Shown here: positions 5,126 through 62,313 of the stretch, piece after piece
Layout of the letters: each line of letters starts with the position of its first letter
Numbering within the stretch: the stretch's first letter is position 1
NCBI GenBank assembly: GCA_963663765.2
Contig: CAXXUA010000004.1
Location: 864,001 to 928,000, forward strand
Source: Candidatus Poribacteria bacterium
GTDB lineage: Bacteria; Poribacteria; WGA-4E; WGA-3G
DNA: 64,000 bases
Direction: 5' to 3'
Notes under the pieces: generated by a model
What the model was told of the DNA's origin: nothing
What the model saw: the letters and a program-made list of their open reading frames with translations, nothing else
The model's database searches: none
Made by a program: the position numbers and the translations under genes

Positions 5126-5305
5126 CAGGACTTACGCATCCAACGGTAGGCGGGGAATGCCTAAATGGCATTCATACCCGGGGAATGCCAAAAGGTATTC
5201 ATACCGTTGATTTCTTGATTTTGCGCTGGAAACTTAAAAAACGCTGAAAATTACATCATTTTCATCACAATTCTTGATTAATTCATGAAAACTGCGTAAG
5301 TCCTG
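5126..5305. mobile_element. MITE with CAGGACTTACGCA terminal inverted repeats
   Basis: 13-bp TIRs; family members at 20180..20301, about 48383..48497, 51302..51423 and 53031..53279. Confidence 0.8.
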
Positions 5306-9586: not shown

Positions 9587-10658
9587 GGTAGGCGTGCTTT
9601 GTAAGCGCGCTGTTGAGACGTGATGTGCCAGCGCGCTTACAAAGCAGGTCTACCATCGGGGCGCGCTTACAAAGCACGCCTGCAGTTGGGGGGCGCGCTT
9701 ACAAAGCACGTCTACCATCGGGGCGCGCTTACAAAGCACGTCTACCATCGGGGCGCGCTTACAAAGCATGCCTGCAGTTGGGGGGCGCGCTTACAAAGCA
9801 CGTCTGCAGGGGAGTGCATGTGGGGGGCGCGCTTACAAAGCACGCCTGCAGGGGAGTGCATGTGAGGGGCGCACTTACAAAGCACGCCTGCAGTTGGGGA
9901 GCGCGCTTACAAAGCACGCCTGCAGTTGGGGGGCGCGCTTACAAAGCACGCCTGCAGGGGGAGTGCAGTTGGGGGGCGCGCTTACAAAGCACGCCTGCAG
10001 GGGAGTGCATGTGAGGGGCGCACTTACAAAGCACGCCTGCAGTTGGGGAGCGCGCTTACAAAGCACGCCTGCAGTTGGGGGGCGCGCTTACAAAGCAGGT
10101 CTACCATCGGGGCGCGCTTACAAAGCACGCCTGCAGTTGGGGGGCGCGCTTACAAAGCACGCCTGCAGTTGGGGGGCGCGCTTACAAAGCACGTCTACCA
10201 TCGGGGTGCGCTTACAAAGCACGTCTACTATCGGGGCGCGCTTACAAAGCACGCCTGCAGTTGGGGAGCGCGCTTACAAAGCACGCCTGCAGGGGAGTGC
10301 ATGTGGGGGGCGCGCTTACAAAGCACGCCTGCAGTTGGGGAGCGCGCTTACAAAGCACGCCTGCAGTTGGGGAGCGCGCTTACAAAGCACGCCTGCAGGG
10401 GAGTGCAGTTGGGGGGGGCGCTTACAAAGCACGCCTACAGTTGGGGGGCGCGCTTACAAAGCACGCCTGCAGGAGAGTGCAAGTGGGGGGAGCGCTTACA
10501 AAGCACGCCTGCAGGAGAGTGCAAGTGGGGGGCGCGCTTACAAAGCACGCCTGCAGTTGGGGAGCGCGCTTACAAAGCACGCCTGCAGGGGAGTGCAGTT
10601 GGGGGGCGCGCTTACAAAGCACGTCTACCATCGGGGCGCGCTTACAAAGCACGCCTAC
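9587..10658. repeat. Head-to-tail array of about 30 copies of GCGCGCTTACAAAGCACG(C/T)CT (30/32/42-bp units), preceded by one inverted copy
   Basis: Counted by eye; the linkers come from three recurring types; the array is enclosed by two nested inverted-repeat pairs. Confidence 0.95.
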
Positions 10659-10832: not shown

Positions 10833-11290
10833 TAGTGAAATCCAAAAATATATCTACACTCCCTGGTGAGGGTTATTCAGTTTTCAATATTTTTGATAGT
10901 ATTTTGCTATTCCGTTAATATTATGTGATACCATAATATTATGTGATACCATCTTGTCCATGTTTTTAGTTCCGTAGGAACGATATGTTTATAGAAAATG
11001 TTTTCTACCCCAATTGAGTTCCGTAGGAACGACATAGAAGAATAAACATATCGTCCCTACGGGACTAAAGAACTGGGGGAGGGTATTCGTTTTCTATAAA
11101 TATATCGTCCCTACCAAATCAACGCCAAATGCGCCAAATCAACGGTATGAATGCCATTAAGGCATTCCCCGTATGGCATTTGTCGGGACTAAATAGCGAT
11201 GTTCATGTTTCAATAATCTAAAATTGATGTATAAAGTTCGGTAAGGAAACCGAACCTACCGTCGTGTCAAAGTAATTATGGATTTTACTA
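10833..11290. mobile_element. Composite MITE (TAGT(G/A)AAATCCA ends, TA flanks) containing nested REP cassettes
   Basis: Inverted termini flanked by TA; the interior resembles the reverse complement of part of 26772..27164. Confidence 0.6.
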
Positions 11291-22705: not shown

Positions 22706-22984
22706 CGAGTTGTGCTAAATAACTATATGTTAACCATTGTTTCACATAAGCATGACGTTTTGCAGGTGTCCTTCATAGTTTGAAACGATCTTCAGTCCCG
22801 ACAAATGCCATACGGGGAATGCCTTAATGGCATTCATACCCGGGGAATGCCAAAAGGCATTCATACCGTTGATTTCTTGATTTGGCGCATTTGGCGTTGA
22901 TTTGGTAGGGACGATATGTGCGCATTATAAACCTAATATATGTAATAACTTTGAAAACAATGGATTAACTGGCACAAGTCGTTA
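22706..22984. mobile_element. AACGA(C/G)TTGTGC-ended MITE with nested micro-insertions
   Basis: Inverted termini; matches 48553..48779 apart from the inserts and one internal unit. Confidence 0.75.
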
Positions 22985-23153: not shown

Positions 23154-24917
23154 ATTCGCAGTCTATTCGGTCTGAAAAAATACGTCAAAAGATATAGATA
23201 CGCCATTCTGCTTAGTTTCATTTTAGTGATTCTGACTAATGGGTTGCTGCTAATTAGTCCAATAATATTACGAGTATTTTTTAATGAGTTAGAACAGGAT
23301 TTTAGAAACCCAGAATTTTCAATCACTCAGAACCGTGTACTATTTTTTGCAGCCCTCATATTTGGCGTTGCATTCGTAGGGGGTATATTCCGTTTCGGAC
23401 AACGACGTATTATCCAAGGCGTCGCAAGACAGATAGAATTCCATCTACGTGCGGACTTTTTTCTCCATCTGCAAAAACTCTCCGCTTCATATTTTAGCAA
23501 CATCCGAACAGGCGATCTGATGACGCGCGCTACAAGCGATCTGAATGCTATTCGAATGGTGCTGAGTAGTGCTATCATATATACTGCTGATGCAATAGTG
23601 TTTTTCGGGTTTGCACTGGTTATTATGGTTCGCATTGATACATCTCTGACGCTTGTTGCCTTGTTGCCGTATCCGATTCTTGCATTTATTATACGTCTGC
23701 TTGGTAAACACATACACGCACATTACGAACGGATACAAGGGGCGTTTTCTACGATGAATACCAAGGTGCAAGAGAACTTATCAGGTGTACGTGTCGTCAA
23801 AGCGTATACACTTGAGCAGAATGAGGTCGAACATTTCAAGGAATTGAATCAAGAGTTTGTACATCGAAACCACAAACAGATACGTCTGATGACCTTTTTC
23901 TTCCCATTGTTTCGGTTCTTGCCGGGAATAGGTGGTGTTGTACTTCTATGGATGGGAGGAACCCATGTGATTCAGCAGAAAATTACATTGGGTGACTTTG
24001 TTGCTTTCAATGCTTATCTCATGATGCTTGTGCGTCCAATGATAATGCTGGGTTTTATTGTTAATACCTTTGAACGTGGGGCTGCATCAATGGGCAGGAT
24101 AAACGCTATCCTGAGTGAAAATCCAGAAATATACGATGGCGAAAATGTCCAATATAATAAAAAAAGCATTGAAGGTGAAATAACATTAAAGAACCTGAAT
24201 TTCAGTTATCCTGATGGACAGTCTGTCCTAAAAGACATTAACCTAACTATACAAAAAGGCACTACACTTGCGATTGTTGGGGGAACAGGTTCAGGGAAAT
24301 CAACGCTCGTAAATCTTATTCCGCGCATTCGACAAACTGAACGAGGAACAATTTTTATTGATGGTGTGGATATACAGGACATTCCCCTAAACGTTCTCCG
24401 TTCCAATATCGGTTTTGTTGAACAGGAACCTTTCTTGTTTTCTGATTACTTAAGGTATAATATCGCTTATGGTGTTGATACACCAGACGATGACGCAATC
24501 AGGAATGCTGCACATACTGCTGACTTATTGGCACAAATTGAGGAATTTCCAGATGGCTTGCAAACCTTCCTTGGAGAACGTGGTATAACGATTTCTGGTG
24601 GACAACGCCAACGCAGCGCACTTGCACGCGCTATACTGATTAAACCAAAAATCCTTATCCTTGACGATGCATTTGCAAATGTGGATACACAGACTGAGGA
24701 TACAATATTAAACAGGTTATCAGAAATTATGAAAGATAGGACGACGATACTTATTTCACACAGGATTTCTACTGTAAAAAATGCGGATCACATCATCGTA
24801 TTGAACGATGGGAGTATTGTTGAATCTGGGACGCATGAACAACTCCTTGACAAGCGCGGGATTTATGCTGGTATCTATGAAACACAACTGTTACAGGATG
24901 AACTTGAAGAACTATAG
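23154..24917 (+). CDS. ABC exporter subunit (MdlA/YheI-like fused permease-ATPase)
   Basis: TM domain, GGTGSGKS and degenerate ISGGQ/DD motifs; start extended to an in-frame ATT at 23154 after GGAGG (the track starts at 23226). Confidence 0.9.
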   Translation: MRSLFGLKKYVKRYRYAILLSFILVILTNGLLLISPIILRVFFNELEQDFRNPEFSITQNRVLFFAALIFGVAFVGGIFRFGQRRIIQGVARQIEFHLRADFFLHLQKLSASYFSNIRTGDLMTRATSDLNAIRMVLSSAIIYTADAIVFFGFALVIMVRIDTSLTLVALLPYPILAFIIRLLGKHIHAHYERIQGAFSTMNTKVQENLSGVRVVKAYTLEQNEVEHFKELNQEFVHRNHKQIRLMTFFFPLFRFLPGIGGVVLLWMGGTHVIQQKITLGDFVAFNAYLMMLVRPMIMLGFIVNTFERGAASMGRINAILSENPEIYDGENVQYNKKSIEGEITLKNLNFSYPDGQSVLKDINLTIQKGTTLAIVGGTGSGKSTLVNLIPRIRQTERGTIFIDGVDIQDIPLNVLRSNIGFVEQEPFLFSDYLRYNIAYGVDTPDDDAIRNAAHTADLLAQIEEFPDGLQTFLGERGITISGGQRQRSALARAILIKPKILILDDAFANVDTQTEDTILNRLSEIMKDRTTILISHRISTVKNADHIIVLNDGSIVESGTHEQLLDKRGIYAGIYETQLLQDELEEL

Positions 24918-26771: not shown

Positions 26772-27164
26772 CAGGGTTATTCAGTTTTAGGAGTTTTCTG
26801 TTATTGAGATTTACTGAAAGTTAATACCCAAATGAGGTTTCCTAACTGCACCTTATACATCAATTTTAGATTATTGAAACATGAACATTGCTCTTTAGTC
26901 CCGACAAATGCCATACGCGCATTTGGCGTTGATTTGGTAGGGACGATATGTTTATAGAAAACGAATACCCTCCCCAGCTCTTTAGTCCCGTAGGGACGAT
27001 ATGTTTATTCTTCTATGCCGTTCCTACGGAACTCAAGAGAGTTAGATAACATTTTTCTATAAACATATCGTCCCTACGGGACTAAAGACACGGACAAGAT
27101 GGCATCACATAAATTAACGTCATAGCAAAAAATCATCAAAAATACCTAAAACTAAATAACCCTG
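26772..27164. mobile_element. 393-bp MITE with CAGGGTTATT TIRs and 9-bp TSD CACATGATA
   Basis: TIR and TSD read directly; CAGGG ends resemble the ISAs1 family. Confidence 0.88.
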
Positions 27165-53030: not shown

Positions 53031-53279
53031 CAGGACTTATACCAAATAAACGGAATTTATCTTTTTCCAACGGTAGGTGCGGTTTCCTAACCGCACACTT
53101 AGCAAGACGAATCACGCTAATTGGGTATTACGCATTTTTCATGATTTGATGAAGTATTATGATGAAAATGATGCAATTATCAGCGTTTTTATGGGTTTCC
53201 GGCGCGCTTACAAAGCACCAAATCAACGGTATGAATGCTATTTAGGCATTCACCGCCTACAGTTTTTGCGTAAGTCCTG
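53031..53279. mobile_element. CAGGACTTA-family composite MITE with TSD TCTAA
   Basis: TIR and TSD; holds two REP types and a 36-nt micro-insert. Confidence 0.8.
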
Positions 53280-61996: not shown

Positions 61997-62313
61997 CAAT
62001 ACCTTCGCCATTTTTGAGTGTTTCAATTGAATGAGTATATAGTGTTGATCTACCATTGCTCTGTGATATTGTTAGGATTACATAAATAAAAATAACTTCA
62101 GGTTTTCGTTGAAGTATTTTTAATTATCATAGCGTCTAATTTGACGATAGAATCTGACAGAATAATTTATATGCACAATCTGGATGAAGATAAATTAATT
62201 TATTAATTAATTTATTAATCGGGTAATAAATATTTTTCAGATGGTAGGCGGGGAATGCCTAAAGAAGCATGCGCGTATGGCATGCTCCATGATTCATACC
62301 GTTGATTTGGTGG

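Follow-up and report, generated by a model that had tools for sequence, protein, structure and literature searches.

At one site in a Candidatus Poribacteria genome, a palindrome (GTCCCTAC|GGGAC, 11104-11195) is split by a 34-nt unit, B, and the loop of B is split in turn by a 36-nt unit, A. What are these units, and how did they come to lie inside a REP palindrome and inside one another? The site belongs to a stretch of 64,000 nucleotides, here called the window, from the genome of a sponge symbiont (G000). An earlier note, made from the letters of this stretch, took the units for an undescribed class of tiny mobile DNA that parasitises REPs.

Results

Tagged hairpins in the window

Each of the six nested or filled sites named in the earlier note reads as claimed at its coordinates (Table 1). 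Matches to the tag with at most one mismatch number 20 in the window, against 7.2 expected, and 20 was reached in none of 100 shuffles. Eight of these matches are parts of elements. The remaining 12 are accompanied by an A hairpin or a B arm in no case, and the matches at 24296 and 46791 are without any hairpin. In the whole genome the exact 10-mer tag occurs 462 times, while about 15 occurrences are expected from base composition, and family A numbers 406 copies. A further REP type (TTCGGT...ACCGAACCTACC) adjoins the A-in-B site at 11236-11270. It is akin to the REP that flanks the sole RAYT of a related genome (G017, locus L100).

Table 1. Tagged hairpins and their host repeats in the window, and IS605-type copies in the genome. 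Positions given without a contig (C3, C5) are those of the window.
Feature	Position	Strand	Remarks
Host REP-A, 5' arm and loop	11107..11114	+	GTCCCTAC; GTAG-type REP (GTAG on opposite strand)
Element B, 5' part	11115..11134	+	Tag CAAATCAACG, 5' arm CCAAATGC, loop bases 1-2
Element A, 36 nt	11135..11170	+	Tag and hairpin GAATGCC/GGCATTC, within B loop at GCGC|GTATGG
Element B, 3' part	11171..11184	+	Remaining loop and 3' arm, GTATGGCATTTGTC
Host REP-A, 3' arm	11185..11189	+	GGGAC
Empty REP-A	11053..11065	+	GTCCCTACGGGAC; unfilled allele of host, 50 nt upstream of A-in-B site
Element B, 34 nt, uninterrupted	26903..26936	-	Splits REP-A at GTCCCTAC|GGGAC; ssDNA fold -5.4 kcal/mol, z -1.17
Composite: B holding two tags and two A hairpins	22800..22904	-	B, 22885-22904 and 22800-22813; inside B: outer A tag, 22877-22884; complete inner A, 22842-22876; GG; outer A hairpin, 22814-22839
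Double A	5152..5222	-	Outer tag, 5215-5222; inner A, 5180-5214; outer hairpin, 5152-5177; host REP-B-like (CCAGCGC|GCCTACCG)
Element A, 36 nt	53219..53254	+	Splits REP-B at AAAGCAC|GCCTAC; ssDNA fold -6.3 kcal/mol, z -3.99
Element A in REP-B	62250..62309	-	A hairpin interrupted by 28-nt inverted second-class hairpin (62264-62291)
Empty REP-B, example	10425..10438	+	CAAAGCACGCCTAC
IS605-type copies (loci L090-L093)	C5:688634, C3:287718, C5:550867, C5:353059		

Anatomy of the unit

The unit consists of a 5' tail, (N)AAATCAA, and, 3' of it, an imperfect hairpin with CG at either end. Its length is 34 nt in B and 35-36 nt in A. When the units are folded as single-stranded DNA, the 5' tail is free, and the hairpin opens with the CG of the tag and has the lower stem CGG/CCG. 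The closing CG takes in a G that was previously counted as flank. The hairpin claimed for each unit is present, but it extends to CG...CG and so includes this supposed flanking base. The claimed 10-nt tag has to be shortened: its conserved part is the 9-mer AAATCAACG, and the base ahead of it varies, being C in 35, G in 13, A in 5 and T in 3 of 56 host families. This base is variable even inside a single host type, and it is C in most copies. At the A-in-B site, the single-stranded fold has the stems of the host, of B and of A nested in one another.

The units have one internal hairpin and unlike ends, and terminal inverted repeats are absent, as the earlier note stated. The combination of such repeats with a target-site duplication that marks a MITE was not found. 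The features of a REP are present in the folds, the stems and the 406 copies: a short imperfect palindrome, an unpaired 5' motif, a high copy number and an extragenic position. Among just 22 distinct un-nested B/C-like units compared, the stems of families A, B and C differ by compensating changes in both arms. The paired arm variants are CCAAATGC/GCATTTGG, TCAGAAGC/GCTTCTGA, CCGAATAC/GTATTCGG and ACAAATAC/GTATTTGT. The loop GCGTATG is common to many units and is the point at which A enters B.

Hosts and junctions

The units are discrete and insertion-derived, and they have been copied to many unrelated places. This part of the claim of a tiny mobile DNA class stands, whereas mobility itself we infer. 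Genome-wide, REP-A was found uninterrupted (GTCCCTACGGGAC) 602 times and filled 120 times, REP-B was found empty (CAAAGCACGCCTAC) 358 times and filled with a tag 113 times, and the B loop was found empty 54 times and filled with A 50 times. Simple A units of 35-36 nt number 414 and occur in 97 contexts of six plus six flanking nucleotides. An identical 35-mer lies in REP-B, in the B loop, in REP-D and in other unrelated hosts. The REP load of this genome is extreme and diverse: besides the 602 copies of GTCCCTACGGGAC and the 358 of CAAAGCACGCCTAC, there are about 400 REP-D hairpins, with the 4-nt loops GGGA (266), AGGA (96) and GTGA (39).

The hosts are GTAG-type REPs read on the opposite strand, octamer tandem repeats and the elements themselves. 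The host REPs have the forms GTCCC-GTAG-GGAC, GGTAG-GCGTGCTT-TGT-AAGCGCGC and GTAG-GAGCGACC-TCCC-GGTCGC.... Insertions were found in the loops of REP-A, REP-D, B and the GGGAATC|GGAGTTCCC REP. The positions occupied are exposed ones, namely loops or stem edges of GTAG-type REPs, octamer tandem repeats and resident copies, and the strand of the unit is in every case the same with respect to the host hairpin. Resident copies have two fixed entry sites. Entry at the junction of tag and hairpin gives nesting, and entry at the 3' end gives head-to-tail pairs.

The A-type clusters of G000, together with at least 79 loci of other species, gave 56 host families. According to the earlier note, a single ancestral context or the lack of a consistent junction would refute its reading. 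The copies are spread over these 56 host families, and a G follows the unit in 49 of them. The full C|G step of the earlier note is found in 27 host families, and a C stands ahead of the variable junction base in 32. C|G is the commonest target and is also found at both fixed sites in the element. Donor flanks and targets have at most 1-2 nt in common, and the unit ends are fixed over the 56 host families and between species. Clean sites carry no duplication beyond one ambiguous C. In REP-D, the filled loop is one base short of the empty loop.

The contrast between the two ends would also fit copying by a polymerase. An RNA or single-stranded DNA copy could be templated at a nick in an extruded hairpin, in a target-primed reaction of a reverse transcriptase or a repair polymerase. 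Such a reaction should leave the 3' junction exact and add a variable base at the 5' junction; the 3' junction observed is near-invariant, while the pre-tag base is C, G, A or T. The persistence of intact copies in genomes without Y1 genes (see below) also agrees with it. However, no bacterial system is known to insert 35-nt units by target-primed copy-in, and we consider such copying distinctly unlikely.

Nested copies

The genome contains 71 doubles. Their outer hairpin is the variant of the single units in that host (10 of 13 and 8 of 9), and their inner hairpin is mostly a different variant, one that occurs across hosts. A resident copy was therefore entered by another copy, and this happened repeatedly, the outer hairpin being of the resident type and the inner one foreign. 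The nested junction always reads AATCAA-G-AAATCAACG...CCCC-GG-GTATG. The junction type of the composite in the window is common to 65 of the 71 doubles, and 171 of 173 G-initial tags are preceded by AATCAA. Such a junction requires a C-to-G change. Nesting of A in A, as reported earlier, is present, but it is not a clean insertion: a clean C|G junction was seen zero times.

A second nested module is a hairpin of the GAATGC...GCATTC type with the loop GCGTATG and a 3' CATG, for example, the one interrupting the A hairpin in Table 1. It enters just ahead of ATTC in the 3' arm of A, in either orientation and recursively (...CTACATG-ATTCGCCATG-ATTCATACC). The module also occurs at loci L015, L036, L055, L058, L079, L080 and others, and it is much commoner in some other species. 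The 8-mer CATGATTC is barely enriched in G000 (234 versus about 170 expected).

Amplification together with the host

Most of the 406 A copies result from amplification of host and guest together, including long tandem arrays. The loop variant is tied to the host context (12 of 12, 8 of 9, 41 of 50 and 28 of 33). This tight link means that independent insertions are far fewer than copies. The numbers of tags and hairpins vary independently: two tags with one hairpin were found 55 times and two with two 46 times, and the largest assemblies reach four tags or seven hairpins. The architectures counted are mostly single units, nested forms and head-to-tail pairs. The irregular numbers indicate slippage on top of insertion. 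Most copies are due to co-amplification with the host, arrays and slippage, and not to insertions of their own.

Long arrays of A-bearing REP-B units lie at 110-112 kb of contig C4 and at 322-327 kb of C6. Tandem arrays with a period of about 78-134 nt were located at C4:110139-111763, C6:322492-327428, C5:1739866-1740106 and C4:1182633-1183207. The units in these four arrays are REP-B plus A with the GCGTATG loop, and they yield long spurious ORFs with repetitive translations.

It is possible, though doubtful, that the units are not mobile by themselves. They would then have had few origins by replication error (template switching, slippage or quasi-palindrome copying) and would have travelled since as passengers of REPs, arrays and gene conversion. 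The tie between loop variant and host context, the independent numbers of tags and hairpins, the irregular junctions and the long REP-B plus A arrays all fit such a history. So do the lack of any enzyme found, the many copies in Y1-free genomes and the fact that species differ by entire repeat blocks and not by one unit at a time. At the same time, it is hard to reconcile with unit ends that are fixed over 56 host families and species, with identical 35-mers in unrelated hosts, and with doubles that combine a resident outer and a foreign inner hairpin. The abundances of A and B, which are uncoupled between species, also argue against it.

Position relative to genes and replication

Four units fall within ORFs, all of them spurious ORFs over repeat arrays, and none of the units lies in a real gene. 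We found no preference of orientation relative to the flanking genes (218 co-directional versus 189 opposed). Tag-bearing sites are over-represented in the space between divergent genes, where 193 of 688 lie, although such pairs make up 11.5% of gene pairs, on crude ORF calls. No solid replication strand bias was found in G000, G005, G017 and G047. In G017, one variant occurs 26 times forward and 25 times reverse, intermixed, and the orientations are likewise intermixed in G047. G005 has only regional clustering of orientation, with dnaA inside one block. In G000, the comparison of tag orientation with gene-corrected GC skew gave a rho of 0.16 (p 0.22).

The strict confinement to the space outside real genes could mean that the units are functional modules selected by the host. 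A protein-binding site with a structural hairpin, an RNA stabiliser or a terminator might be kept uniform by selection. The ATCAA core occurs in IHF sites of E. coli BIMEs, and exact variants are kept between species with genes 70-90% identical. However, we consider such a function very unlikely in view of the absent orientation preference, the enrichment between divergent genes and the copy number of 0-406 in one genus. Nesting also disrupts host hairpins, and Rfam gave no match at gathering score within the window.

Search for an enzyme

The enzyme families searched were Y1_Tnp and one RAYT protein. G000 has one intact RAYT of 159 aa (Y1_Tnp, 41 bits) at C4:621598-622074 (locus L094, 1438-1917), outside the window. 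Inverted arrays of the REP GTAGGAGGGAACTCCGATTCCC stand on either side of it, which makes it a textbook REPtron. A second RAYT, behind a REP-B array, is truncated where contig C10 ends, and C5:1704569 holds a 35-aa fragment. GTAG REPs flank the intact RAYT, the one at the C10 contig end and that of G017. The tag is absent from the scanned RAYT/Y1 loci L090-L094, L099, L100, L102, L103, L105, L107 and L108. At L095, a single tag lies about 600 nt from a partial RAYT.

G000 also carries four IS605-type copies (Table 1), with a tnpA of 139 aa and a tnpB of 370 aa, each located 3' of TTAAC. Three of them are complete, and the copy at L093 loses similarity beyond tnpA. The IS605 ends and the TTAAC target are unlike the tag; the units have neither ends matching a resident IS nor a fixed target, as a miniature of the IS200/IS605 type would have. 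Derivation of the units from the ends of these elements, or membership in the cyanobacterial SDR families, is extremely unlikely. What speaks for it is the presence of the four IS605-type copies and the very small, nested, hairpin-forming build that SDRs are said to have. Against it stand, besides the ends and the target, the lack of a match in the plasmid collection, which presumably covers Nostoc plasmids, and the mere 29 occurrences of HIP1 in the genome. The viral contig collection likewise gave no match. The host is a Poribacterium and not a cyanobacterium, so the SDR comparison made in the earlier note keeps its value only as an analogy.

That note had also proposed to look for an HUH/Y1, RT or recombinase gene flanked by the tag. 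None was found at the scanned RAYT/IS605 loci, in the tag-bounded intervals or next to the arrays. In 50 intervals bounded by tags of opposite orientation, the ORFs are ordinary or spurious, and so are those next to the two largest arrays (both read by eye). A RAYT is present in 80 of 101 genomes, and its presence does not track the A copy number. A search with Y1_Tnp (PF01797) at E <= 0.01 gave no hit in G048, G001 and G010, which have 106, 89 and 104 A copies, respectively. The share of perfect full-length copies is 64% in G048, 63% in G001 and 49% in G010, versus 68% in G000. Intact copies in the absence of Y1 imply another, unrecognised enzyme, or copying by a polymerase, or passengers of other processes.

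The first of these options can be stated more narrowly. A 35-nt unit might insert strand-specifically into single-stranded DNA loops, those of its own copies included, by machinery that is not a recognisable Y1/HUH enzyme, since the units are uniform and abundant in genomes without such a gene. We think this unlikely. The enzyme would then be a new, hairpin-specific inserter, or an activity of host replication or repair would have been co-opted for copy-in.

Distribution across Poribacteria

A and B are confined mainly to one genus. Of 37 other genomes of the genus, 36 contain a 19-mer of A, and copy numbers range over 0-275 there, versus 406 in G000. The 19-mer also occurs in 25 of 57 genomes of the sister genus (mostly 1-2 copies, up to 67), in 1 of 20 genomes of a further genus and in none of 36 other genomes sampled from the phylum. 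For B, the corresponding figures are 34 of 39 genomes in the genus and 1 of 54 in the sister genus. The two families are uncoupled: G040 has 14 copies of A and 134 of B, G017 has 275 and 10, and G001 has 89 and 0. Of two other members of the genus, G003 and G009, one is a complete genome with no A and three copies of B, and the other has three copies of A, two of B and 21 Y1_Tnp hits, mostly of one IS with a TAG-interrupted tnpA.

An exact 20-mer of A was found at no fewer than 79 loci in public genomes; among the matches listed, 76 are Candidatus Poribacteria and 3 are "uncultured bacterium". These loci are collinear with G000, with genes up to about 88-90% identical. Species with no more than 70-90% identity between their genes have exact variants in common, at non-orthologous places. 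This requires continuing copying, homogenisation or selection. The foreign loci contain 84 A units, and for 26 of them both flanks were found in G000. Seven of these 26 candidates, chosen for good collinear gene flanks, were aligned as orthologous spacers, the species being too distant for single-unit events to be seen. In six of the seven, a whole repeat block is missing from G000, and in one, the two species have unrelated blocks. Nine of the 11 public runs listed cover the window or part of it, and none is on record as RNA. The four runs examined are short-read contigs that end at repeats (e.g., 11406, 22403 and 26800), so no read bridges an element. Neither these runs nor the aligned spacers gave a host site that is empty and filled within one species.

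Discussion

The tagged hairpins are real and apparently undescribed relatives of the known miniature bacterial repeats, and they are REP-like in their working. A full-text search gave no paper on such repeats in Poribacteria and none with the tag or arm sequence. E. coli BIMEs are intergenic mosaics in which a few palindromic units and fixed linker motifs stand side by side. The repeats described here share the mosaic build, but their units are nested in each other's loops, up to three deep.

The units have much in common with REPs. Both are imperfect stem-loops of 20-40 nt with an unpaired conserved motif at the 5' foot and hundreds of extragenic copies, and both have several families per genome, form arrays and insert into palindromes that are also found empty. 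For REPs, target palindromes that also occur empty are described in section 7 of Di Nocera 2013 (PMC3733652). The literature distinguishes GTAG- and CGTC-tagged REP superfamilies, and it attributes the mobilisation of REPs and REPINs to RAYT Y1 HUH nucleases (PMC3733652, PMC3479197, PMC3116915). Here the tag is AAATCAA(CG), in contrast to both superfamilies, and GTAG is found on the hosts and not on the guests. The tagged hairpins are themselves guests inside GTAG REPs and inside each other. Unlike in the REP/REPIN-RAYT pairs, no RAYT is flanked by the tagged units, and the units are abundant and intact in genomes without a Y1 hit. The target palindrome of the Anabaena variabilis GTAG-15 dimer, as given in the same section 7 (PMC3733652), holds AATCAAAT/ATTTGATT, which resembles the tag core; this may be a coincidence.

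Two other systems share single features with the units. In the account of IS200/IS605 elements (IS608 and ISDra2) given in PMC3479197, a hairpin and a short 5' guide set the cleavage site, and the targets are single-stranded DNA. As in these elements, so far as that account goes, terminal inverted repeats and target duplication are lacking. However, IS200/IS605 elements carry a pair of subterminal hairpins, and their insertion site lies 3' of a fixed tetra- or pentanucleotide, whereas the units have one hairpin and a variable left flank. The SDRs of heterocystous cyanobacteria are reportedly able to insert into one another. In papers that cite Elhai et al. (2008, Genome Res 18:1484), SDR5 of Nostocaceae is described as 21 nt long and located between bases 3 and 4 of HIP1. 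By this description, very small dispersed repeats and precise insertion into another short palindrome are common to both cases, and the Poribacterial host, the length of 34-36 nt, the 5' tag and the position in REP loops set our units apart from SDR5.

How the units are inserted can be answered only tentatively. We rank first, at somewhat less than an even chance, the reading that they are non-autonomous, REP-like "tagged hairpin" micro-elements of a Poribacteria lineage with HUH-like insertion in trans. The build of tail and hairpin, the strand-specific placing in loops and the use of two fixed sites in resident copies all suggest that the reaction takes folded single-stranded DNA as its substrate. 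Among enzymes that act in this way, the Y1 HUH nucleases are understood best. The target would be single-stranded and folded at the moment of insertion, and a hairpin-recognising nick-and-join enzyme of the HUH kind would act in trans. The analogy is to a REP with its 5' guide and HUH cleavage, as set out in PMC3479197. There, Messing 2012 ascribes the C|T cleavage by E. coli TnpA-REP to the last two bases of the GTAG guide, A and G. The CG at the end of the tag may play the role that GTAG has for this enzyme, and a guide ending in CG would, by the same rule, specify cleavage at C|G. The enzyme may not be a recognisable Y1 transposase. After insertion, the units multiply mostly with the host repeat, by array formation and slippage.

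The evidence against HUH-like insertion is serious. No gene flanked by the tag was found, RAYT presence does not follow the number of A copies, and genomes without a Y1 hit have copies. The tight link between loop variant and host context, the lack of an observed empty/filled polymorphism within a species and the lack of a solid replication strand bias also count against it. The junctions are not uniform either, as seen in the pre-tag base, in the REP-D loop and in the C-to-G change of nested copies.

The multiplication of REPs and SDRs is a long-standing open question, and this lineage represents a clean natural data set for it. Its units are discrete and bear a fixed tag, its empty and filled sites run to hundreds, and its recursive nesting records the order of events. 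It also includes sister species with 0-406 copies and several complete genomes that have intact copies and no Y1 transposase. If the units do insert through machinery other than a recognisable Y1/HUH enzyme, the tagged hairpin, at 35 nt, would rank with the smallest self-defined units of mobile DNA known. A trans-acting enzyme, should there be one, could be found by comparative genomics over about 100 genomes, and it would be a hairpin-loop-specific inserter and a possible tool. If there is no enzyme, replication alone would generate and spread defined micro-insertions.
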